From a virus (taxonomy: Duplodnaviria > Caudoviricetes), in IMG/VR virus record IMGVR_UViG_3300037515_000354, positions 5,362 through 69,361 of that record: 64,000 nt of DNA. The stretch is one strand, 5' to 3'. This document shows, one piece after another, positions 4,621-51,745 of the stretch (position 1 is the stretch's first letter; each line of letters opens with the position of its first letter). The notes beneath the pieces were generated by a model. The model saw nothing but the letters and a program-made list of their open reading frames with translations. It was not told the DNA's origin and did not search any database. Made by a program: the position numbers and the translations under genes.

Positions 4621-6639
4621 TTACACAGAAGAGCTTTCTGTAGAGGAGATTTGATCTTGCTCCATGGCCGCTCGTTCCTGTCGAGCGACCAACGCAGTAC
4701 GCCAGTCGTCGGTCTTCCCCCGGATCTCTATGGAGCGGGCTTCGAGCCATGCGCGGGCACGGCGGAAGCTCAGTCCCAACGGGAGGTCTGCTTCGTTCAT
4801 CTCGCGCATGATCCGCTGAACGTTGGCACTTGGCCCCTGTGCCGTGCTCCGCGTTCCGCCACGGGGCCCCTGTGCGTCCCCAAGGGTGATGTAGGCCGCC
4901 GCACCCCGCTTCGGCTCGAACGGGTCCGGCCCCGGGATGGTCCCGAGCCGGAGCGCGTACCTCTGCCCGGCTTCCCCCTCCTTGGTCTTCCGCCGGATGA
5001 GGACCCGTGGGGCGTCGGGACTGCGGTCTTCGTTGTCCGGCCCGTCCAGCTTGATCACGTATGCATCGTCGGCGTCGTCCTCCTGACTCGACGAACCGCG
5101 CGCGTGGATACCCTCGTACCCGGTGTGCGCCAGCATGATCACCGTACAGCCGGTCTCGTCCTTGATCTTCTGGAGACCTTCCATCACGGTGCCCTGGTCC
5201 TTGGCCTGGTTCTCGTCGATACCCGGGGCGCACCGGTGCAGGGTGTCGAAAATGACGACCTTCGCCCCGGTCTTGCGCATCTGACGGATGATCTTCGCGA
5301 CCTCTTCCGGCTTGGTCGGGTTGAGCCCCTTGGGCGTTACGGTCAGGTCCTTGACGAGATCACCATCGTTGAACGCCTGTTCCCACGCCGCGATCCGGCT
5401 GAGGATGCCCCGGTGACCCTCTGCCGCGATGTACAGCACCGGCCCCGACTCGCACACCCGGTGACCCTCCCAGTCCTTGCCGGTGGCGATACAGCCTGCC
5501 CACGCCAGTGCCAGGAAAGTTTTGTACGTGCCGAACTTGCCGGACAGCCACACCACGGACGCCTTATTGATCATGTCTTCGATCAACGGCTCTACCGCCG
5601 GTAGGTTAACCAGCGCCTCACGTGTCAGGAACAGTTCGTCGGTGTCGTCCTCCGGCGCGTCCGGTGCGTCCCGCACCGCCGTGGACAGCAGATCGTTGAA
5701 CTCGTCCTCGCGCCCGTCCCCGGTGGCCGCGTACCAGTCCTCTTCCAGCCGGTTGAAAACCCCCTTGGCCGCCACCTTGCCCTCGACCGCCGCGCGTGCC
5801 GCCCACCCGAGCGCTTGCATCATGGTGTCGTGGCGTGATCCTTCTTTGCGGCTGAACTTGGTGCGGATCTTGTCCACGAGATCGGGATCGAACTCGTCGG
5901 TGAAGTCCTCCTCGAACTCCTCCACCGACCTGCCCGCGCCCGGGGTGTGGTCGCGCTGGTCCTTGCTCAGGTGTTCCAGCCACGACGCGGGCAGATACGG
6001 TATGTCGTCCAGGCCGGGCGGTCCGCAAGCTTTGCCGTCCGGGTCGTACCACTGGTACTTCGATCCGGTTTTGGGATGCACCGAGGGCGCGACCACGGCG
6101 TACCGCAAGTGATGCTGGACCGTGTCGATGTCCGGTCCGGCCGCGCCTTCCAGCTCACCCGCGTTCTTCGGGATCTTGAAAAAGTGGATCCGGCTCGGGG
6201 AGGTCTCGCCGCGCGCGGTGCTGGTCCAGGTGGGGGGGAGTGGCCCGAGCCGTGTTTCCAGACTGGCGAGGGTGTCCGCCCCGGCTTTCGTGTTGCCGTG
6301 CCCGTCGTCGTACCCGTGGTCCACGTCGATGCCCACGTAGCCGGTGGGCAAACGCCATGCAAGGTTGTATGCCGCGTACTTGGCGATGGTCTTGGGGTCC
6401 GCGTACTCGTCCGGCTGTGTTTGCCTGCCGTCCCGGCCGTGCGCTCCCTTGAACGCGGGCAGTTTGGTCGACCGCACAAGCGGGATGATGCCGGTGTAGT
6501 CCTTCTGGGCGTACCGGAGAGCCGCCGATCCGTACGGCTGCGATGTGGTTTTCGCGTGGCCGTTCAGTGTGGTGTGCGCTCCGGGTTCACCGGGTGCGGG
6601 GCCCATGAGGAAGTCGACCGCAGATGACGGAGTGGTCAT
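4621..6639 (-). CDS. Bifunctional primase-polymerase fused to an AAA_25/RepA-type helicase
   Basis: N-terminal GYVGIDVDHGY...STARG...IHFF prim-pol motifs; Walker A GKFGTYKT, Walker B VVIFDTLH. Confidence 0.9.
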   Translation of the reverse strand: MTTPSSAVDFLMGPAPGEPGAHTTLNGHAKTTSQPYGSAALRYAQKDYTGIIPLVRSTKLPAFKGAHGRDGRQTQPDEYADPKTIAKYAAYNLAWRLPTGYVGIDVDHGYDDGHGNTKAGADTLASLETRLGPLPPTWTSTARGETSPSRIHFFKIPKNAGELEGAAGPDIDTVQHHLRYAVVAPSVHPKTGSKYQWYDPDGKACGPPGLDDIPYLPASWLEHLSKDQRDHTPGAGRSVEEFEEDFTDEFDPDLVDKIRTKFSRKEGSRHDTMMQALGWAARAAVEGKVAAKGVFNRLEEDWYAATGDGREDEFNDLLSTAVRDAPDAPEDDTDELFLTREALVNLPAVEPLIEDMINKASVVWLSGKFGTYKTFLALAWAGCIATGKDWEGHRVCESGPVLYIAAEGHRGILSRIAAWEQAFNDGDLVKDLTVTPKGLNPTKPEEVAKIIRQMRKTGAKVVIFDTLHRCAPGIDENQAKDQGTVMEGLQKIKDETGCTVIMLAHTGYEGIHARGSSSQEDDADDAYVIKLDGPDNEDRSPDAPRVLIRRKTKEGEAGQRYALRLGTIPGPDPFEPKRGAAAYITLGDAQGPRGGTRSTAQGPSANVQRIMREMNEADLPLGLSFRRARAWLEARSIEIRGKTDDWRTALVARQERAAMEQDQISSTESSSV

Positions 6640-12967: not shown

Positions 12968-14652
12968 CTGTGTCGATCTTGCCCCTCCGTGACTACCAGC
13001 GCGGTGCAGTGGATGCGGTGCAGGACGCGCATGCCGCCGGGATGAACTTCCCGGCGGTGGTCCTGCCGTGCGGATCCGGGAAGTCGGTCATCCTGGCCCA
13101 TCTGGCCGCCGAGAATCTGGCCGCGCACCGTGGCCGGAACCTCGTGCTCGTCCACCGCGACGAGATCGTTGACCAGTTGATCAGCCAGATCAGGGCGGTC
13201 GCGCCGTGCCTCACGGTGGGCAAGGTGAAGGCCGCAGACGACGAGGTGATGGCGGACGTGGTGGTCGCCAGTGTGCAGACCGTGTCCCGGCCGGAAAGGC
13301 TCCGGCGTCTGGTCGCCTCGCAGTACCAAGTTGCTCCGAGATCCGCACACCCGAAGAACTTCGGGCTGGTGATCACCGATGAGTGCCACCGGTCGGCAGC
13401 TCCTAGCTACCTCAAGATCTACGACGCGTTCCCGGGAGCCAAGAAGGCGGGGTTCACCGCCACGCTGTCACGCGGCGACGGAGTCGGCCTCGGGTCCGTC
13501 ATCGACGATGTGGTGTTCACCCGGTCATGGCTATGGATGATCAAGAACGGGTACCTCGTGGACCCGGTGGGGCAGGTGGCCACCGTGGAAGACCTGGACC
13601 TGTCCGGCGTCCGCCGGAGCGGGGGTGACTACGCGGCTGGTGCCCTGGGTGAGGCACTGCTCGACACCGGGGCGCCCGAGGTCATCGCGGCGGCATACCG
13701 GCGCTACGCGTGGGACCGCTCCGGCGTGGTGTTCACGCCGACCGTGGCCGCCGCCTACGGCGTGCGCGAGGCGCTGGCCACTGCGGGTACCACGGCCGCC
13801 GTGGTGGACGCTGCTACACCCCGTGCGGACCGTCTGCGGATCTACGAAGACTCACGCAGCGGCAGGGTCCAGGTCATCGTCAACTGTGCGGTGCTGGTCG
13901 AGGGAGCTGACTTCCCGTGGGTGTCCGCCGTAGTGCCCCCTATCACCCGGTCTCAGGGCCGGTTCCAGCAGTCGGTGGGCCGGGCCATGCGCACGTTCCC
14001 CGGCAAGCAGGACGCGCTGGTGCTGTCCGTGGGCGGTATGTCCGGGAGGCTCTGCACACTGGTGGACCTTCAGCCCGGGACCGTGCGGGCCGTCAGGCCG
14101 GGGGAATCTCTGGTTGAAGCGGAAGTCCGGGAGAAAGCCGAGGCGGACCGGACCGTACCCGCCAGCACGCGCGGGTTCGATCTGAAGGTCCGGCACGTCG
14201 ACATGTTCGCAGCGAGCCGGAGTGTGTGGCTGCGCACCCACGGAGGGGTGTACTTCGTCCCCGTGGCGGACGGCGAGGTCTTCCTCTGGAAGGGCTCCGA
14301 CGGTATGTGGGAAGTCCGCCACGCACCGCGTGACACGTCCCGTCTCAAGATCGTGTGGCCGGTCCTGTACGAAGGTCTTTCCCTGGAGATGGCCATGGCG
14401 TTCGGCGAGGCTGCTTCCGAGGATCTGGAGACCGGCTCCGCCCGTGTGTCGAGCAAGGCAGCGTCGTGGCGCAAGTCCAAAGCCGGTCCCACCGAGGGCC
14501 AGATGGCCGCCTGCCGCGTCCACGGGGTGGCCGTGCCCGAGGGTGCCACCCGCGCTCAGGTGTCCGATCTGCTGTCCGTACACGTGGCCAGTGCGAAGTT
14601 CGATCCGTTCGCTGTCCGGCTGGCCCGGCAGACCACTGTCAGTGCCCCGTAG
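12964..14652 (+). CDS. Superfamily 2 DExH helicase
   Basis: Walker A LPCGSGKS, DECH, FTAT, VIVNCAVLVEGADFP, QQSVGRAMR. Confidence 0.93.
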   Translation: MTVSILPLRDYQRGAVDAVQDAHAAGMNFPAVVLPCGSGKSVILAHLAAENLAAHRGRNLVLVHRDEIVDQLISQIRAVAPCLTVGKVKAADDEVMADVVVASVQTVSRPERLRRLVASQYQVAPRSAHPKNFGLVITDECHRSAAPSYLKIYDAFPGAKKAGFTATLSRGDGVGLGSVIDDVVFTRSWLWMIKNGYLVDPVGQVATVEDLDLSGVRRSGGDYAAGALGEALLDTGAPEVIAAAYRRYAWDRSGVVFTPTVAAAYGVREALATAGTTAAVVDAATPRADRLRIYEDSRSGRVQVIVNCAVLVEGADFPWVSAVVPPITRSQGRFQQSVGRAMRTFPGKQDALVLSVGGMSGRLCTLVDLQPGTVRAVRPGESLVEAEVREKAEADRTVPASTRGFDLKVRHVDMFAASRSVWLRTHGGVYFVPVADGEVFLWKGSDGMWEVRHAPRDTSRLKIVWPVLYEGLSLEMAMAFGEAASEDLETGSARVSSKAASWRKSKAGPTEGQMAACRVHGVAVPEGATRAQVSDLLSVHVASAKFDPFAVRLARQTTVSAP

Positions 14653-25618: not shown

Positions 25619-25733
25619 AGGTCCTGGTACGCGGGCCCCAGGGAGGGGGTTGAGGCCGCCAGACGGACGCACAGGACGTTCATGTAGCACCGTTTGTATC
25701 ATGATTTTATGCATCGTCATGCATGACCACCCG

Positions 25734-25763
25734 AGCCGCCGGTGATCTTCCCGGCGGCTTTTG
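25734..25763 (+). terminator. Intrinsic terminator-like hairpin
   Basis: AGCCGCCGG-tgatcttc-CCGGCGGCT followed by TTT. Confidence 0.65.
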
Positions 25764-26534
25764 ATCTTCCCTTACGCGCGCGCGTAGACACGCGTGCCTG
25801 CCCGCTCCTCAAGATCCAGCAAACTTTTTAAAGAATCTTGCTCTACCCCATTGCGTACCCCCGAACGGGGGAGCTTAATGGAGTCAGTACAACAGCACGG
25901 CGCAGGGAGGGTCCAACCCCCTCCAACCGATCAAGAGTCACCCCGGGTACCTACGGAGACCGGCAAAGGCTCAAGATCACAAGGACCGCCCCGACGGGGG
26001 CGGGCGCCACTCCCCTCCAGGGCCGCGAGGTACAGGGGGGCGGGGACCGGATCTCCGCAAGCAGCATTGCAGCCGGGCCCGGAGTGATCACCGGGTACAC
26101 AAACTGACGATCAAGAGAAGCCTAGCCGCTGGACGAAGGGGCGGGGCCACAAGATCGCCGAGGACATACGGCACTGACGATCTTGAGGAACCAATCCGGA
26201 CGTACTGGAATCCGCGAAGCAACTCGGGTTAATCACCCGGCCAGTAGGCCGCCGATGAAGATCCCCGCCAATCCTCGCGGGTCATACAGCACCGGGCAAC
26301 CGGATGCATACGAGGATCACACGCTTCGCAGGGTCTGCGGTCAAACACCCTGCTACGGCATTGAGGCGGTAGACGCGGCCGGTAGCCGCGACCGAGAGGC
26401 GCCCAGCGGGTTCAACCCCCGCCCCTGCCACTGATCACCGCACGCCAGAAACGATGGGTCAAGGGCCTGGGAAACAGCGGCGCACGGCGGTCCCCCTACA
26501 CCACCCACACCCACACCCACACGAGGAGCCGGTC

Positions 26535-26768
26535 ATGAGCGACACCCGAGAGATCACCGGCAAGGGCTTCACCTACGTAGTCACCCGCCGGTTCCTGAAC
26601 AAGGAGACCGGCCGGATGCGCGTCCGGGTCCGGATCTACCAGGGCATGATCGCTTTCGGCACCCCCAAGGTCAACGAATACCGCGACTACGACAACATGC
26701 ACGACGGCGACGCGAAGTTCCTCGCACACATCAACAAGATCACCGCGCACGTCAACTCGAAGGGCTGA
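26535..26768 (+). CDS. Hypothetical protein
   Basis: GAGGAG RBS. Confidence 0.75.
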   Translation: MSDTREITGKGFTYVVTRRFLNKETGRMRVRVRIYQGMIAFGTPKVNEYRDYDNMHDGDAKFLAHINKITAHVNSKG

Positions 26769-26773
26769 TCATC

Positions 26774-26971
26774 ATGGAGACCAACCAGTACGCGACTGAG
26801 TCCAACACCTCCGTCTGGTACGAGGTGCAGCGCCAGTCCGGCAGCAACTACGGCTGGATCACTCTCTCCGACCACGACACCCGCGAGCAGGCAGAGAGCG
26901 CCATGGATGCCCGGACGGGTTCGGTCGCCGACCCCAGCTACCGGATCCGCCGGGTGCGCGGACAGGCATAA
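26774..26971 (+). CDS. Hypothetical protein
   Basis: Stop TAA abuts hammerhead 1. Confidence 0.7.
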   Translation: METNQYATESNTSVWYEVQRQSGSNYGWITLSDHDTREQAESAMDARTGSVADPSYRIRRVRGQA

Positions 26972-27031
26972 GGCGAAACGCCCCTCGGGGCGTCCGCCGG
27001 GGGTGCCTCCCCGGCGCTGATGAGCCAGGCA
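26972..27031 (+). ncRNA. Type II hammerhead ribozyme 1 (predicted cleavage after C26994)
   Basis: GGC-GAAA-CGCCC/GGGCG-TC-CGCCGGGG/CCCCGGCG-CTGATGA-GCC; loop TGCCT pairs with tail AGGCA. Confidence 0.92.
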
Positions 27032-27051
27032 CACGGACACAGGGAGCGATC

Positions 27052-27246
27052 ATGACCAGCATCAACCAGGGCCCGAACGACGACTACCGCCGCACCGGCC
27101 AACCGGTCACGTACCTCACCGCCGACGGCACCCGGCGGGTGTCCGGCACCGTCCGGTGGGAAGACGCGAACGGCGTCAAGGTGGATGTACCCGGACAGCA
27201 GTTCGGAGCGTACGTGTCCCACGCGTTCGTCACCTTCACACGCTGA
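27052..27246 (+). CDS. Hypothetical protein
   Basis: GGGAG RBS between hammerheads 1 and 2. Confidence 0.75.
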   Translation: MTSINQGPNDDYRRTGQPVTYLTADGTRRVSGTVRWEDANGVKVDVPGQQFGAYVSHAFVTFTR

Positions 27247-27250
27247 TCAA

Positions 27251-27310
27251 GGCGAAACGCCCCTCGGGGCGTCCGCCGGGGGTGCCTCCCCGGCGCTGAT
27301 GAGCCAGGCA
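27251..27310 (+). ncRNA. Type II hammerhead ribozyme 2 (cleavage after C27273)
   Basis: Identical to copy 1. Confidence 0.92.
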
Positions 27311-27330
27311 AACGAACCGAGGAGCCGGTC

Positions 27331-27531
27331 ATGGCACTTACCCCCGGAACACAGATCACCGTCCTGCTGGGGACCGAGCCGGAGCAGTTCACGGTCGAGA
27401 GTGTCGACAAGGACTGCACGGTGCATGTGCGGTCGAACGCTGCGCCGTACAGCCTGGTCATGTGGCCGACTGACTACCGCCTCGGTGCCACGCTGCACAA
27501 GATGGGCCAACCGGGTACCAAGGGTTGGTAA
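27331..27531 (+). CDS. Hypothetical protein
   Basis: GAGGAG RBS. Confidence 0.75.
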   Translation: MALTPGTQITVLLGTEPEQFTVESVDKDCTVHVRSNAAPYSLVMWPTDYRLGATLHKMGQPGTKGW

Positions 27532-27550
27532 CTGATCTCCGTCTGATCAA

Positions 27551-27610
27551 GGCGAAACGCCCCTCGGGGCGTCCGCCGGGGGTGCCTCCCCGGCGCTGAT
27601 GAGCCAGGCA
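27551..27610 (+). ncRNA. Type II hammerhead ribozyme 3 (cleavage after C27573)
   Basis: Identical to copy 1. Confidence 0.92.
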
Positions 27611-27624
27611 CGGAAGGAAAGATC

Positions 27625-27771
27625 ATGGATGCCGCAACCGAAGCGATCAGTTTCGCCGCCGCCGCGTGGTCGCTCGAACTGATCGACCACTACCCCGGCA
27701 CCGACGCCGACCGTGACGACATGATCCGCAATCTGGCCGCGTACGGTCCGGCCATCACCGAGAGGGACTGA
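27625..27771 (+). CDS. 48-aa hypothetical protein (not in ORF track)
   Basis: AAGGAAAG RBS; MDAATEAISF...ITERD. Confidence 0.6.
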   Translation: MDAATEAISFAAAAWSLELIDHYPGTDADRDDMIRNLAAYGPAITERD

Positions 27772-27776
27772 TCCAA

Positions 27777-28007
27777 ATGACCATGGACACCACCATCCGT
27801 ACCGGCGACGTTGTCGTGATCTTCTACGACGCCGACTCGCTGCCCGGAACGGTCTGCAAGATCGTAAAGTCCCGCACCGGCAACGTCCGCCGGGTCGGGA
27901 TCGCTCCCGACGGCGCGGACATCGTGGCCTGGTTCATCCCGGTGCCCGACATGTTCGACGGGGCCTGTCTGGTCTCGGTGGGGGGTTCCACCGTCGCGTA
28001 CTGGTAA
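27777..28007 (+). CDS. Hypothetical protein (SH3-like beta pattern)
   Basis: IRTGDVVVIF...PGTVCKIV. Confidence 0.65.
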   Translation: MTMDTTIRTGDVVVIFYDADSLPGTVCKIVKSRTGNVRRVGIAPDGADIVAWFIPVPDMFDGACLVSVGGSTVAYW

Positions 28008-28009
28008 GA

Positions 28010-28073
28010 GGCGAAACGCTCCCTCCGGGGAGCGTCCATCGGGCATGGTCCCCCGGTGCTGATGAGCCGGACC
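28010..28073 (+). ncRNA. Type II hammerhead ribozyme 4, divergent (cleavage after C28036)
   Basis: Same core; compensatory stems CGCTCCC/GGGAGCG and CATCGGG/CCCGGTG; loop TGGTC pairs with tail GACCA. Confidence 0.92.
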
Positions 28074-28089
28074 ACGAGGAGGAGCGATC

Positions 28090-28287
28090 ATGAGCATTAC
28101 ACTCACCAAATTCAAGATCCAAGACGTTGTGATCGACAACGACTGGAACGACCCCCCGGATCTCGGAATGATCGTCGACATTCCGAACGACGGTAACGAC
28201 CGCCGTTTCGAGATCTTCTGGCAGGACGGAACGCATACGTTCGAGCGCCTGTCTGGTATGGCCGACTTCGGCCACGTGAGTGTGTGA
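28090..28287 (+). CDS. Hypothetical protein
   Basis: GAGGAGGAG RBS. Confidence 0.75.
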   Translation: MSITLTKFKIQDVVIDNDWNDPPDLGMIVDIPNDGNDRRFEIFWQDGTHTFERLSGMADFGHVSV

Positions 28288-28369
28288 TCTCCGCTCGGGT
28301 GCGCGTCTCGTACGTGCACCCCCTGAGGCTGATCATCCATACCTCACTCCGACTACCACAGGAGCGACC

Positions 28370-28570
28370 ATGTTCACGATCGTTTACCGCACGCAGCTCG
28401 ACAGCACCCTGACGCGACTGGAGACCGACAACCTGTACGACGCGATGTTCGTGCTTCAGGACGTTGCGGTCCGCCGGGACGCCGAACTGATCGACTTCAG
28501 CCCTGAGCTGGACGGAGCGCTGGACGGCCTGCTCGACCACGTCCGGCTGTCCGTCGCTCGCGCGCTCTGA
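28370..28570 (+). CDS. Hypothetical protein
   Basis: AGGAG RBS. Confidence 0.7.
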   Translation: MFTIVYRTQLDSTLTRLETDNLYDAMFVLQDVAVRRDAELIDFSPELDGALDGLLDHVRLSVARAL

Positions 28571-28611
28571 TCAAGGACAGTAAAGCTGATCTTCGACAAG
28601 AGGAGACCATC

Positions 28612-28809
28612 ATGAACGTCCTCATCATGCACGTGTTCTACCCCGGCATGACGCAGTCCCGCCCGGTGTCCGTGGGCGACCCGGTGACGGATGCCGGTTA
28701 CACCGGCTACGTCTGGACCGTGGACATCAACGACGTGAACGCGGACCCGGTCCGTACGCACTGCTCGCGTCTGTCGGAAGACCCGGTCGGCCAACTGTCC
28801 GTCCGTTGA
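28612..28809 (+). CDS. Hypothetical protein
   Basis: AGGAGAC RBS. Confidence 0.7.
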   Translation: MNVLIMHVFYPGMTQSRPVSVGDPVTDAGYTGYVWTVDINDVNADPVRTHCSRLSEDPVGQLSVR

Positions 28810-28951
28810 TCAGCAGCTCCGGCCGGTGTCAGAGCCGACCGGAGCACTAGGCGCGGGTCACGGGCCGGTCATCCCCCCGTCACTCCGTTGCCAGCACAAC
28901 GACCGGCCGGATCCCCCGGCCGGTCCACCTCGTTCAACCGCAGGAGCGATC

Positions 28952-30145
28952 ATGCAACTCACTCTCCGTAAGGGCACTCTCCAGGATCTGGCCACCGAGC
29001 TGGCCGAGCAGCAAGAGCGCAAGAACGATCTCGTCGTCCCCGCGTCCAAGCTGTGGTCCCACAACGGCAACGTGATCGTTGCCGGTGGCCGCCCCGAGCG
29101 GATCGACTCCGACGGAGTCACTCCCGCCGGGAACCTCGAACTGACCCCGTCCGGCGTGTTCGACACCGGCATGGTGGCCAAGCTGTCGCAGCCCGGCCGT
29201 CCGGTCGGCCGCGCGTTCATCCGTGGGCTGCGCGAGACCGGCCGTACGGACATCATCGACGGCGTGTACAACGGATTGCTGCACGGTAGTGCCGATCTCG
29301 CGGTGCAGGGCGACGCCCGGAAGTTCTTCGTCCGCACCTTCACGGGTCAGGGCGACGGACCGGGCTACGCCCGCGCACTGCTCAGTGACAGCTACCGGCC
29401 GATCGACAACTGGGACGTGCTCGCGACCGTGATCGACGGTCTCACGTCCGCCGGATTCTCCGGCCACGTGGTCCGGCAGGCCGATCTGTCGGACGACAAG
29501 ATGTACCTCCGCGTGTCGGTGCCGGAGATCACGGCGCTCGCGCCTGGTCTGTTGCACGGCTACACCTCGCCTTACGGCGGAGCGCGCGGTGCGGACAACC
29601 CGGTCGTCGAGGCCGGGATCGTCATCACCAACTCGGAGACCGGGGGCGGTGCCTTCACGATCACTCCCGAGCTGGTCGTCCAGATCTGCTCGAACGGGAT
29701 GACGATCAAGCGGGACATGATCCGCAAGACGCATCTCGGGTCCAAGCTCGACGAGGGGCACATGAAGATCAGTCAGCGGACCCTGGCGGCTAACCGTGAG
29801 CTGGTCGCGTCTCAGACCCGCGACGCCATCGAGACGTTCCTGGACGAGGGGTACATGAACCGCGTGCTCCAGCAGATCGAAGCGGGCTCGGACGAGAAGA
29901 TCGCCGACGTCGAGAAGACGATCGAAGTGATCACTCAGCGTCCGGCGTTCGGCAAGGCGGACATGAAGGGCCTTCTCGCCACGTTCATGGACGGAGGCGA
30001 CCGCACGCGCGGCGGTCTGGTGCAGGCGGTCACCGCGTACTCGCAACAGATCGACGACGCCGACCGGGCGTACGAGATGGACGCGGATGCGCTTCCGGCC
30101 GCCGGGTTCAGCAACGTGACCGGCCTGGTTCCCGCCGGACGCTGA
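28952..30145 (+). CDS. DUF932-like protein
   Basis: RALLSDSYRPIDNWDVL; ITNSETGGGAF...QICSNGM. Confidence 0.75.
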   Translation: MQLTLRKGTLQDLATELAEQQERKNDLVVPASKLWSHNGNVIVAGGRPERIDSDGVTPAGNLELTPSGVFDTGMVAKLSQPGRPVGRAFIRGLRETGRTDIIDGVYNGLLHGSADLAVQGDARKFFVRTFTGQGDGPGYARALLSDSYRPIDNWDVLATVIDGLTSAGFSGHVVRQADLSDDKMYLRVSVPEITALAPGLLHGYTSPYGGARGADNPVVEAGIVITNSETGGGAFTITPELVVQICSNGMTIKRDMIRKTHLGSKLDEGHMKISQRTLAANRELVASQTRDAIETFLDEGYMNRVLQQIEAGSDEKIADVEKTIEVITQRPAFGKADMKGLLATFMDGGDRTRGGLVQAVTAYSQQIDDADRAYEMDADALPAAGFSNVTGLVPAGR

Positions 30146-30146
30146 A

Positions 30147-30208
30147 TGATCGGAGGCAGCATGGTGGCCGGTCCCTCCGGGGGCCGGTTGGCCACGGGTT
30201 ACCGATCA
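30147..30208 (+). ncRNA. Unknown 62-nt structured intergenic motif, copy A
   Basis: Terminal stem TGATCGG/CCGATCA and inner stem CCGGTCCC/GGGGCCGG; repeated at 30635. Confidence 0.6.
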
Positions 30209-30218
30209 CTGAAAGGAA

Positions 30219-30446
30219 ATGACCATGGCAGGTAAGTACTTCGTCGACTGGACGGATCCGCCTTTCCCGGCCATCCGGCCTATCGGTGATGCGTCTTCGT
30301 ACGCGGAGCCGATGACTCTGGCGGAAGCCAAGCAGGACATCATCAGCAGCTTCCAGGGGCAGCTCGAACACGCCCGGGACCAGATTCGCCGGACCCGGTC
30401 CCTGAAGGTCGCGGACATCAAGGCGGAAGCCGAAAGGGGCTGGTGA
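30219..30446 (+). CDS. Hypothetical protein
   Basis: AAAGGA RBS. Confidence 0.7.
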   Translation: MTMAGKYFVDWTDPPFPAIRPIGDASSYAEPMTLAEAKQDIISSFQGQLEHARDQIRRTRSLKVADIKAEAERGW

Positions 30447-30637
30447 TCATGCGCGTAGGCGACCTGATCCAGATGACGGTTACCCGATGCGATTCGATCA
30501 TTGAAGTCACCGCTCGGTTCGGGGGGCAGGAAGGACGCGGCCAGGCCCCGAACACCGGGACCCTCGCGCAGGACGTGGCCGCACTCCGGGCGGTCCGCAA
30601 TCTGAAGCGCAAGCTGGACGGCCGACCGGCCGAATGA
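30443..30637 (+). CDS. Hypothetical protein
   Basis: GTGA overlap; stop lies in motif copy B. Confidence 0.6.
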   Translation: MIMRVGDLIQMTVTRCDSIIEVTARFGGQEGRGQAPNTGTLAQDVAALRAVRNLKRKLDGRPAE

Positions 30638-30696
30638 TCGGAGGCAGCATGGTGGCCGGTCCCCTGGGGGGCCGGTCGGCCATGGGTTACCGATCA
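30635..30696 (+). ncRNA. Unknown 62-nt structured intergenic motif, copy B
   Basis: Differs from copy A in the apical loop and two stem-compatible positions. Confidence 0.6.
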
Positions 30697-30714
30697 CAGG
30701 AGGAGCGAGAGTAC

Positions 30715-31194
30715 ATGGACGTAGCAGACATCTTCAAGGATCTCGGAAGCGTGGTGTCCGGCGTCTCCGAGAAAATGGACTGGGCCGAGGACGAGATCGA
30801 AAAGGCTCAGGCCCGGCACGGCGAAACCGGCCGTGGCCCGCTGTGGGGCAGCTTCCGGGCGGTCCGGCAGAACGAGAATCACATGGCCGAAGAGATCATC
30901 TACCGGGCGCACGCCAGGGAGATTCTCGACCGGGTGGCCGCCGGTCGCGACGTCCGTCCCGGCACCGACGCCGAGATGATCGCTGCGCTCCGCGCGTCGT
31001 CGCTGGTGTCGCCACTGCCATCGGCCGCCGCGACCCTGTATTTCCGGATCGCGGCCCGGTCGTTCCCGGAACTGTTCGCCACGGTCATGGCCGTGATCGA
31101 CTTGAAGGCATACGAGGCGGTGCACGGCACGGCCGCCGACGACCAAGAATCCTGGCTCCGGGCCAAGCTGGCCACGGACCGGGGGAAGGACTGA
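30715..31194 (+). CDS. Hypothetical protein
   Basis: AGGAGG RBS. Confidence 0.75.
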   Translation: MDVADIFKDLGSVVSGVSEKMDWAEDEIEKAQARHGETGRGPLWGSFRAVRQNENHMAEEIIYRAHAREILDRVAAGRDVRPGTDAEMIAALRASSLVSPLPSAAATLYFRIAARSFPELFATVMAVIDLKAYEAVHGTAADDQESWLRAKLATDRGKD

Positions 31195-31196
31195 TC

Positions 31197-31496
31197 ATGG
31201 CGCACGAGATGTCCGAGGAGATGTGGCGCGCCTGTCACCCGCCCATCGACACCATCGCGATTCCGCCGGAGCTGTGCCCCGAGCACCGGAGCATCGCGCA
31301 CGACTGGCGGAACAATCTCTACAGCTCGTACAACCCGTCCGAGTGGCCGGGCGGCTCACACATCATGGACAGCCGGACCAGCCACCGCGACCGCCGGTAC
31401 GACTGGGAGACCAAGAACGAGGACCAGGTGCGGCTGACGGTCAAGTCGTGCTTGTCCGGCCGGTCTCCGCAGTGCAACCACCCCGAGGAGGGTTGA
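31197..31496 (+). CDS. Hypothetical protein
   Basis: Operon packing. Confidence 0.65.
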   Translation: MAHEMSEEMWRACHPPIDTIAIPPELCPEHRSIAHDWRNNLYSSYNPSEWPGGSHIMDSRTSHRDRRYDWETKNEDQVRLTVKSCLSGRSPQCNHPEEG

Positions 31497-31498
31497 CC

Positions 31499-31732
31499 GT
31501 GGCAGCAAAGATCACAGATCCGGCCGACTTCGAAGAGCCGGTGTTCAGCCCGTCGGAGATTCTGGCGTGGACCACCTCGGACGCCGGGGGCAGTCTGCCA
31601 AACGTGTCCGCGCGGCCGTTCACCGAGTGGCTGAACGGTACGTGGAACCAGTTCGACGACGGCTCCGGCACCCAGACCAACGAGAACATCCTGAAGGGTG
31701 CCCTGGAGCACTGGACGGGGGGCCGGTCATGA
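31499..31732 (+). CDS. Hypothetical protein
   Basis: GAGGAGG RBS. Confidence 0.65.
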   Translation: MAAKITDPADFEEPVFSPSEILAWTTSDAGGSLPNVSARPFTEWLNGTWNQFDDGSGTQTNENILKGALEHWTGGRS

Positions 31733-51281: not shown

Positions 51282-51745
51282 CTCCGCGATACATGCGCCA
51301 TCGGGGGCGTCTCGTCGCGGTGCTCGACCTCGTCACCGGCCGCCGGTGGCTCGAACTCCCTGAACCACCTGTTCACGTACTGATACCAGTCACCGGGCCG
51401 CTCGCCCCTGGCGCGCCGGAGACAGGTGCTCTCGTCGGTGTCCATGAGCACGATGCGGAAGCCGCGCCGCGTATACCACTCGCGATCCCGCCGCTTCGGA
51501 GCGCCGAAGATCACCCATAGATCCACATCCTTGCGGGACTCCCACTTGGCCAGCACCCGGTCCCGCGCCTCGTACACGTACGGCCGGATCTCACGCACAT
51601 GGTCGTGAATCTCCTGGCCGGACAGCGCCGCCATGAGGGCGTCGTAGTCCACCACGAGATCACCGGGCTGCATGTGCTGCTCGACGTACCGGTTCTTCCC
51701 CGAGCAGGGGGGCCCGGCAACAAGTGTCGCGAGAGCTGTCACCAT
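51275..51745 (-). CDS. P-loop ATPase/kinase-like protein (AAA_33-type)
   Basis: LVAGPPCSGKNRYV...VVDYD...LMDTDESTCLRRA. Confidence 0.75.
   Translation of the reverse strand: MVTALATLVAGPPCSGKNRYVEQHMQPGDLVVDYDALMAALSGQEIHDHVREIRPYVYEARDRVLAKWESRKDVDLWVIFGAPKRRDREWYTRRGFRIVLMDTDESTCLRRARGERPGDWYQYVNRWFREFEPPAAGDEVEHRDETPPMAHVSRRW

Follow-up and report, generated by a model that had tools for sequence, protein, structure and literature searches.

Four type II hammerhead ribozymes punctuate a small-gene region of an uncultivated tailed phage

What do four closely spaced hammerhead-like elements do between the small genes of a phage? The elements lie within 1.1 kb of the window, by which we mean the whole 64,000-nucleotide (nt) stretch of DNA analyzed here (positions 5,362 to 69,361 of IMG/VR virus record IMGVR_UViG_3300037515_000354), and their predicted cuts mark off units with one, one, and two genes. 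The phage is known solely from metagenome assembly. A tape measure, a tail protein, a family A DNA polymerase, and a primase-polymerase/helicase mark its record as that of a tailed phage; the GC content is 65%. A preliminary description had read the elements as type II hammerheads acting as a protein-independent transcript-cutting system. We consider it probable (roughly 0.75) that four active-looking hammerheads, located in the intercistronic gaps of one rightward small-gene operon, cut the nascent polycistronic RNA into insulated units.

The whole window was searched with cmscan and Rfam 15 at gathering thresholds, which is 37 bits for the Hammerhead_II model (RF02276). Exactly four matches were found, all of them on the + strand, which is the gene strand, and all covering model positions 1 to 66 of 66. 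Copy 1 (26972..27032) is matched at 26971–27034 with 55.3 bits; copy 2 (27251..27311) at 27250–27313 with 57.8 bits and the best E value, 2.5e-9; copy 3 (27551..27611) at 27550–27613 with 54.6 bits; and copy 4 (28010..28074) at 28009–28075 with 55.5 bits. The scores thus span 54.6 to 57.8 bits against the 37-bit cut-off. A separate parser placed the predicted cleavage after C26994, C27273, C27573, and C28036, the same nucleotides that had been proposed beforehand. No fifth copy was found between 20000 and 36000 in a permissive Rfam scan (E up to 5), which returned chance-level matches only for other ribozyme classes in the 20- to 36-kb interval. An Rfam model search of the whole 69-kb virus record gave the same four hammerheads and none further, and RF02276 had no matches in 14 control genomes.

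The copies were resolved into stems with a structure parser anchored on GAAA and CUGAUGA. In the parsed copies, stem II has 3 base pairs (bp), stem III has 6 or 8 bp and is closed by a tetraloop, and stem I has 7 to 9 bp and a loop of 4 to 8 nt. Stem II consists of the paired 5′ and 3′ ends and is open, as in the type II permutation. Copy 1, for example, is laid out as stem II (GGC/GCC), GAAA, the stem III hairpin, GUC, the stem I hairpin, and CUGAUGA, after which comes the tail AGGCA(C), the partner of loop I. The core is complete in every copy (CUGAUGA, GAAA, the A15.1-U16.1 pair, C17, and the G10.1-C11.1 pair); the NUH cleavage triplet, located directly 5′ of stem I, is GUC in all four, and stem II is likewise GGC/GCC throughout. 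By the curated model and by all defining features at the sequence level, the four elements are therefore type II hammerheads, with the full core, GUC triplet, stems I to III, and loop I/tail pseudoknot that the preliminary description had assigned to them. Its one caveat, the 3-bp stem II, turned out to be the family norm: among 48 parsed relatives, stem II has 2 to 4 bp where it is clean, the Rfam consensus has 2 bp, and lengthening of stem II reduced activity in the experiments of Perreault et al. 2011 (PMC3088659).

The minimum-energy fold of copy 1 is a three-way junction. By nearest-neighbor folding, the isolated elements fold no better than shuffled sequence (z of about −1.2); such a score is to be expected for short G+C-rich RNA and for a fold that contains a pseudoknot, and it is uninformative. 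Copies 1 to 3 share the loop I/3′-tail pseudoknot UGCC(U):(A)GGCA, which in copy 4 is UGGUCC:GGACCA. The letters of stems III and I and of the pseudoknot in copy 4 all differ from those of the other copies, while every pairing is retained and the core is unchanged; the parser recovered the compensatory changes in both stems and in the pseudoknot, bearing out the covariation that had been claimed. We also compared the pairing of loop I with its own tail and with the tails of others in 43 distinct hammerheads drawn from the window, from phages R4 and Alvy, and from four IMG/VR contigs. Own-tail pairing was the better one, and none of 5000 tail shuffles reached the observed mean.

The elements are set among small genes, all of them on the + strand. 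Upstream of copy 1 are a 77–amino acid (aa) gene (26535–26768) and a 65-aa gene (26774–26971), called from the open reading frame (ORF) list and GC content at the third codon position (GC3), with a TAA stop codon that abuts stem II. A 64-aa gene (27052..27246) is the sole occupant of the 279-nt unit bounded by cut sites 1 and 2, and the 300-nt unit from cut site 2 to cut site 3 likewise has a single gene, of 66 aa (27331..27531). The 463-nt unit that follows, ending at cut site 4, has two genes, of 48 aa (27625–27771) and 76 aa (27777–28007), separated by 5 nt. A 65-aa gene (28090..28287) would be the first on the RNA downstream of cut site 4; beyond it, the operon has genes of 66, 65, and 439 aa (the last one phrog_1362) and no further hammerhead. 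GC3 of the flanking ORFs is 0.76 to 0.90, well above the 0.33 to 0.52 at the second position, which is the pattern of real genes in a 65% GC genome. The flanked genes matched no PHROG family at E of 0.01 or better and gave two sub-threshold matches only in a Pfam search, and the 76-aa gene had no tblastn match among cultured phages.

At all four sites, a stop codon is followed by the ribozyme, then by the ribosome-binding site and the start codon. The gap between stop codon and stem II is 0, 4, 19, and 2 nt in copies 1 to 4, and the 14 to 20 nt between the end of the pseudoknot and the start codon contain a GGAG-type ribosome-binding site, so the position between a stop and the next start described earlier is borne out. 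Ribozymes and genes share one strand, the gaps are short, and simple consensus scans of the + strand from 25760 to 31500 found no terminator-like or promoter-like site; we infer that the genes are cotranscribed. Five junctions in the same operon are free of ribozymes (26768/26774, 27771/27777, 28287/28370, 28570/28612, and 28809/28826), and cutting is therefore not required for every gene. At 28567, the sequence 'CTGATCAAGG' was considered as the remnant of a lost hammerhead and rejected, since no core comes after it and TGATCA recurs at junctions throughout the genome.

The close spacing of stop codons and ribozymes bears on whether the motifs are active at all. They might be regulated or largely inactive in vivo, as slow or condition-dependent switches or as relics, in which case the operon would normally be an uncut polycistronic RNA. 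A ribosome terminating 0 to 4 nt before stem II of copies 1, 2, and 4 would be expected to cover part of the ribozyme and could delay its folding, and Perreault et al. (PMC3088659) noted that some clustered hammerheads may be nonfunctional or regulated. However, no copy deviates in the core, GUC is the efficient triplet, and every copy has the covarying pseudoknot on which fast cleavage depends; relics would not retain compensatory changes. We regard inactivity or regulation as decidedly improbable.

Self-cutting of the nascent transcript, the reading that we prefer, would proceed as follows. The ribozyme would fold as RNA polymerase passes each gap, with stems III and I forming as local hairpins, the 3-bp stem II closing the junction, and the 5- to 6-bp loop I/3′-tail pseudoknot docking stem I against stem II. 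The RNA would then cut itself after the C of GUC without any protein. The upstream piece would have stem III, a G+C-rich hairpin, at its 3′ end, together with a one-base overhang and a 2′,3′-cyclic phosphate; since the stop codon is located 23 to 42 nt before the cut and would be kept on this piece, no non-stop mRNA should be formed. The downstream piece would begin with a 5′-OH flush on the 7- to 9-bp stem I hairpin, followed by the remainder of the ribozyme, the 14 to 20 nt with the ribosome-binding site, and the start codon. Because the two halves would be joined by the 3-bp stem II alone, they should separate, making the cut effectively irreversible. The predicted products are 279-, 300-, and 463-nt units with one, one, and two genes and with hairpins at both ends, whose stability and translation would be insulated from those of their neighbors. 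In hosts that have RNase J, a 5′-OH end can destabilize RNA, as is the case for the glmS ribozyme. Any stabilization would therefore depend on the flush hairpin blocking access.

The same ends are substrates for ligation, and the 279-, 300-, and 463-nt units could in principle be excised and then circularized, by the reverse reaction of the hammerhead or by host RtcB, into circular or spliced RNAs such as those of viroid-like RNAs and retrozymes. An excised unit would bear both a 5′-OH and a 2′,3′-cyclic phosphate, and in type II topology its two ends would carry complementary ribozyme halves; with stem II being GGC/GCC in all four copies, any unit could rebuild a complete hammerhead. This possibility was raised by Perreault et al., who looked for circular and spliced RNAs in comparable arrays and detected none (PMC3088659). 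Moreover, merely 3 bp would have to join ends across 200 to 400 nt, and nothing in the sequence demands circles, as the units are ordinary cistrons with their own ribosome-binding site and stop codon. Circularization thus seems very unlikely indeed.

The proposed cutting into linear units has parallels in two well-known systems. In phage T7, RNase III sites between early genes cut the polycistronic early transcript into discrete mRNAs with terminal hairpins. The array resembles these sites in that intercistronic RNA structures would lead to transcript cutting; however, T7 relies on host RNase III, whose substrates are long double-stranded stems and whose products have 5′-phosphate and 3′-OH ends, whereas the hammerheads would cut themselves and leave 5′-OH and 2′,3′-cyclic phosphate ends. 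RiboJ is an engineered insulator derived from a plant satellite-RNA hammerhead, in which the hammerhead and a hairpin precede the ribosome-binding site. There, as would happen here, upstream RNA is removed by the hammerhead and the downstream cistron receives a fixed, structured 5′ end regardless of context; RiboJ is engineered, while the array is natural and its role putative. A second repeated motif in the window, a long imperfect hairpin at 30145–30210 and 30633–30698 (z of −2.9 and −3.9), is possibly an RNase III–type site. Blastn found no match to it among cultured phages. Scanning IMG/VR with a degenerate pattern gave only chance matches, with any closing stem in 2 of 120 and neither of these alike, and a covariance model built from both copies had no significant match in 80 viral loci that carry hammerheads.

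Perreault et al. 2011 reported prophages in which hammerheads flank single genes, with clusters in those of Clostridium scindens, Azorhizobium caulinodans, and Agrobacterium tumefaciens (PMC3088659). In constructs of ~2 kb representing three multi-hammerhead arrangements, all sites were cut in vitro, and the A. tumefaciens arrangement also cut when expressed in E. coli; fast cleavage required the pseudoknot (PMC3088659). Mg2+-dependent, site-specific self-cleavage to 2′,3′-cyclic phosphate and 5′-OH ends has been shown for other type II hammerheads (PMC3088659 and PMC8782182), among them three that lie close to phage-like genes of Desulfovibrio vulgaris and are cut in vivo (PMC8782182). The array in the window is like the 2011 clusters in that several hammerheads in gene orientation flank single genes or short blocks in phage DNA, and the type II topology with a loop I/3′-tail pseudoknot was described there too. 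Unlike those clusters, it has four copies, three of them identical in sequence, and comes from a different host lineage, in a high-GC, actinophage-like virus; the earlier arrays were shown experimentally to cut, whereas cutting of this one is predicted. The transcript-cutting role given to the array in the preliminary description coincides with the published hypothesis that a long phage transcript is processed into operon- or gene-length mRNAs (PMC3088659), but the arrangement is not novel. The gene-ribozyme-gene layout has been known in phages since 2011, larger arrays exist, and the locus is a clean new example of it.

The larger arrays include those of three cultured Streptomyces phages of the Arquatrovirinae. 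R4 (NC_019414) and Alvy (NC_054669) have 9 to 10 hammerheads each above the cut-off and VieEnRose (ON526983) has 8, all unannotated in the three records. They belong to the same Rfam family, are 82 to 86% identical in nucleotide sequence to the window copies, and have a stem II of about 3 bp. They also lie on the gene strand in an arm of small genes, again between a stop codon and the ribosome-binding site that precedes the next start codon. Unlike the window, these phages carry 8 to 10 copies per genome over about 10 kb, and all copies differ within a genome (53 to 89% identity in R4 and Alvy); otherwise, megablast gave no match between them and the window, to which the phages are unrelated at this sensitivity. 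Tiny ORFs have been called on top of some of their ribozymes (R4 gp60.1, gp67.1, and gp75.1 and Alvy gene 84), and an over-long gene start swallows the ribozyme at R4 gp72 (Ocr-like). One R4 hammerhead directly precedes an Ocr-like anti-restriction gene, echoing the hammerhead-ardA link of Perreault et al. (PMC3088659). Among metagenomic phage arrays, IMGVR_UViG_3300017605_000570 (locus L090) has at least 11 type II hammerheads above the cut-off in about 4 kb, against four in the window. It and others share the regular gene-ribozyme-gene arrangement, with spacings of about 250 to 390 nt and one 59- to 105-aa ORF per unit, and the placement between stop codon and ribosome-binding site recurs in L090 as well.

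The sole unusual feature of the array is the identity of copies 1 to 3, already noted in the preliminary description and recovered here as a repeat that is 100% identical over about 62 nt (26970–27031 and its counterparts); copy 2, for instance, matches copy 1 letter for letter up to the pseudoknot. The genes between these copies are unrelated to each other. Hammerhead pairs within a genome are 53 to 97% identical in six other arrays, which points to recent duplication or gene conversion here. Because identical 62-nt repeats lie 279 to 300 nt apart in a metagenome assembly, the two intervening units could be mis-ordered, which would not change the finding.

Such identity, confined to exactly the ribozyme, would also be expected if the hammerheads were mainly DNA-level linker repeats at module boundaries, at which recombination between copies, either inside a single genome or among co-infecting phages, shuffles cassettes of a ribozyme and its downstream gene, with RNA cleavage secondary or ancestral. 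Long homology blocks start within a few nucleotides of a hammerhead 5′ end in 4 of 10 cases between R4 and Alvy, which is not clearly above the roughly 2.6 expected (an estimate based on 9 hammerheads and about 35 R4 gene boundaries), and in 2 of 3 cases between loci L043 and L054. Hammerheads without an intervening gene occur back to back in Alvy and L043. On the other hand, phage mosaic joints are located at gene boundaries anyway, and copies from different phages are exactly identical only over short stretches (82 to 89% overall over about 65 nt). Furthermore, the compensatory changes and intact core of copy 4 and all relatives are explained only by selection on RNA. A role mainly as DNA linkers is therefore unlikely. 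We are similarly doubtful that the ribozymes double as DNA cassette boundaries, with the ribozyme, the ribosome-binding site, and the downstream gene as the unit of exchange among actinophages. Were this so, the three identical copies would have been left behind, in the very recent past, by gene conversion, cassette capture, or duplication guided by the ribozyme, and the ribozyme would be both a portable 5′ untranslated region expressing a captured gene and the homology patch capturing it.

The uncultivated phage probably infects an actinomycete; its hammerheads resemble those of Streptomyces phages. Close relatives were not apparent in collections from which the phage's own genome and its nearest neighbors may have been withheld: megablast of 26400–28700 against 50,697 phage records gave no match, an IMG/VR scan that used the neighboring 439-aa protein as query turned up no relative, and an exact 31-mer from copy 1 had no matches in IMG/VR. 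Aminoglycosides are made by Streptomyces. No open-access paper or preprint joining hammerheads with actinophages was found except an unrelated aminoglycoside study; this mBio paper cites aminoglycoside binding to hammerheads. The idea that aminoglycosides inhibit phage through these ribozymes was set aside, since the phages reported there as inhibited come from widely divergent hosts, and hammerheads are thus unneeded to explain the effect.

Taken singly, the locus adds little, being a further well-formed example of an arrangement published in 2011. The identical copies 1 to 3, together with the homology blocks starting at ribozymes in related phages, give a hint that the ribozyme travels with its downstream gene. 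No phage is yet known to benefit biologically from such cuts (review PMC6765202). Candidate effects of ribozyme punctuation are mRNA stability, insulation of translation, and independence from host RNases, and the cultivable phages R4 (S. coelicolor), Alvy (S. lividans), and VieEnRose offer a practical system for asking what it does for a phage.

When the window was searched with Rfam 15 at curated thresholds, six RNAs were detected: two tRNAs and four type II hammerhead ribozymes (RF02276). The hammerheads, numbered from left to right, lie at positions 26971–27034 (copy 1), 27250–27313 (copy 2), 27550–27613 (copy 3), and 28009–28075 (copy 4) of the + strand. Each spans the full 66-position model and scores 54.6 to 57.8 bits (E values of 2.5e-9 to 1.8e-8) against a cut-off of 37 bits. 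The preliminary description had claimed four such elements and proposed an Infernal-type search with the type II model, which returned exactly four matches. A permissive Rfam scan of the 20- to 36-kb part of the window revealed no fifth hammerhead, an RF02276 search of the whole 69,361-base IMG/VR record recovered only the same four, and no matches were obtained in 14 control genomes.

The structure of the four copies was determined by reading the sequence and by a script parser anchored on the GAAA and CUGAUGA motifs. Copies 1 to 3 have a GUC cleavage triplet, a 6-bp stem III with a CUCG loop, an 8- to 9-bp stem I, a 3-bp stem II (GGC/GCC), and a pseudoknot in which loop I, UGCC(U), pairs with the tail, (A)GGCA. 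In copy 4, the core and stem II are the same; stem III is 8 bp with a UCCG loop, stem I is 7 bp, and the pseudoknot is UGGUCC:GGACCA. The changes in copy 4 are compensatory and preserve pairing, as had been claimed. The parser placed the cuts after C26994, C27273, C27573, and C28036, identical to the positions named beforehand. At the level of sequence, none of the four copies lacks a feature that characterizes active type II hammerheads, and we put the probability that they are genuine at about 95%.

The short stem II had initially been regarded as a caveat. This concern was not borne out: wherever stem II was parsed cleanly among 48 relatives, it was 2 to 4 bp long, showing that a short stem II is the rule. 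The triplet was GUC in 44 of the 48 and GUU in the other 4. In 43 distinct relatives, loop I paired more favorably with its own tail than with those of the others (0 of 5000 shuffles), which supports the pseudoknot. In IMG/VR, at least 120 stretches match a degenerate hammerhead pattern, several of them with 4 to 10 matches. At least 11 Rfam-confirmed hammerheads are present within about 4 kb of contig IMGVR_UViG_3300017605_000570 (L090), with one open reading frame (ORF) of 59 to 105 amino acids per unit; 8, 6, and 3 were confirmed in three other IMG/VR contigs (L043, L054, and L098, respectively).

No close relative of the window's phage was found in the phage and IMG/VR collections searched. 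Its ribozymes matched 21 cultured Streptomyces phages in blastn, at 82 to 86% identity in alignments spanning the whole ribozyme. The records of Streptomyces phages R4 (NC_019414), Alvy (NC_054669), and VieEnRose (ON526983) were searched whole with RF02276, yielding 9 hammerheads over the cut-off in R4, 10 (and 1 under) in Alvy, and 8 (and 2 under) in VieEnRose. All are located in the small-gene arm, on the strand of the genes, and none is annotated as RNA. Tiny ORFs have been called over the ribozymes (gp60.1, gp67.1, and gp75.1 in R4; gene 84 in Alvy), and the annotated start of R4 gp72, an Ocr-like anti-restriction protein, reads through a hammerhead. An ATG with GAAGG spacing, 18 nt past the ribozyme, is a better start. 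Given the larger arrays in L090, L043, and cultured Streptomyces phages (8 to 10 copies), the four-copy array is, by this comparison, ordinary.

Copies 1 to 3 are letter-identical, as claimed, and the identity covers about 62 nt; within-genome pairs in six other arrays are 53 to 97% identical, with medians of 66 to 80%. The identity does not extend beyond the ribozyme, and the intervening genes are unrelated to each other, which suggests that the ribozyme itself recently underwent duplication or gene conversion. In comparisons of related phages, at least six homology blocks start no more than a few nucleotides from a hammerhead 5′ end: at 1609, 2112, 2797, and 4550 for R4 and Alvy (ribozyme starts at 1611, 2113, 2796, and 4557) and at 1035 and 1483 for L043 and L054 (1036 and 1491). 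These coincidences hint that ribozyme and downstream gene move together; the excess of block starts at ribozymes is not clearly significant, because gene boundaries are in any case where mosaic joints of phages lie. Back-to-back hammerheads 2 to 3 nt apart, with no gene between them, occur in L043 (5049–5111 and 5115–5185) and in Alvy (13396–13460 and 13463–13529 of locus L021; Alvy 51395–51528) and may record places where genes were lost or gained at the boundaries of ribozymes.

The record, with a G+C content of 61 to 67%, represents a tailed phage. Its products include a tape-measure protein, a tail protein, a family A DNA polymerase, an SNF2-type helicase, and a primase-polymerase/helicase. 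The gene order on the + strand is 77 aa, 65 aa, hammerhead 1, 64 aa, hammerhead 2, 66 aa, hammerhead 3, 48 aa, 76 aa, hammerhead 4, 65 aa, 66 aa, 65 aa, and 439 aa. The small ORFs look like real genes, since all operon genes have a GGAG-type ribosome-binding site and a GC3 of 0.76 to 0.90 versus a GC2 of 0.33 to 0.52. No PHROG or Pfam family matched the small proteins; the 439-aa protein belongs to phrog_1362, a family common in actinophages. Stem II begins 0, 4, 19, and 2 nt after the stop codon in copies 1 to 4, and the pseudoknot ends 14 to 20 nt before the next start codon. All four copies occupy the same position, with a stop codon on the 5′ side and a ribosome-binding site on the 3′ side. 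A terminator-like hairpin (25733–25760) lies upstream of the operon. Simple scans from this hairpin to 31.5 kb revealed no promoter- or terminator-like sites on the + strand, which is consistent with, and does not prove, a single transcription unit; a sigma-70 scan located no promoter for the operon. The ~770-nt stretch before the first gene (25761–26534) has no convincing gene, contains a weak tRNA-like Rfam match (26371–26437; E = 0.59), and could be a leader or an unidentified RNA.

Other elements were observed nearby. An 82-nt gap between two small genes (28288–28369) lacks a hammerhead and contains a stable hairpin at about 28294–28330 (z = −3.45) with no downstream U-run, possibly a further processing or stabilizing element. 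A second intercistronic motif of 66 nt occurs at 30145–30210 and 30633–30698, in the same slot as the hammerheads, with a stop codon preceding it and a ribosome-binding site following it. Its copies are 95% identical, with differences that keep pairing, and fold into a long imperfect hairpin of ~25 bp (minimum free energies of −37.6 and −43 kcal/mol; z = −2.9 and −3.9). The motif had no match in Rfam or cultured phages, and a covariance model built from both copies gave no hit in 80 viral loci that contain hammerheads. The motif may represent an RNase III–type processing site or an unidentified RNA. The window is also rich in GATC (642 observed versus about 208 expected from base composition) and TGATCA (81 versus 6.5) and poor in CTAG (19 versus 208), and many gene junctions carry TGATC where the stop codon lies and GATCATG where the start codon lies.

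The proposal that the array processes one transcript into separate mRNAs is supported. Self-cleavage would occur co-transcriptionally after C17. The upstream RNA would retain its stop codon, and its last element would be the stem III hairpin, bearing a one-base overhang and a cyclic phosphate. The downstream RNA would start with a 5′-OH flush on the stem I hairpin. With the halves connected by no more than the 3-bp stem II, the products would part and religation would be negligible. The four copies probably cut in vivo. Hairpins at the 5′ or 3′ terminus protect bacterial mRNAs, and T7 RNase III sites offer a comparison for units with their own stability. By analogy, each unit would acquire a stability of its own and a 5′ untranslated region independent of context; we consider the chances even that stability or insulation of the units is the purpose of the array.

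The locus is a further example of an arrangement already known in phages. Perreault et al. (2011) described natural type II hammerheads with the same loop I/tail pseudoknot; three multi-hammerhead arrangements cleaved at every site in vitro, one also in E. coli, and circular or spliced products were sought and not found (PMC3088659). Type II hammerheads near phage-like genes of Desulfovibrio vulgaris cleave in vivo (PMC8782182). According to a 2019 review, the purpose of such hammerheads is still undefined (PMC6765202). In the literature library searched, no paper mentioning hammerheads in Streptomyces or other actinophages was found. The significance of the locus is slightly raised by its pointing to cultivable Streptomyces phages, whose large unannotated arrays provide a setting where array function could be tested.
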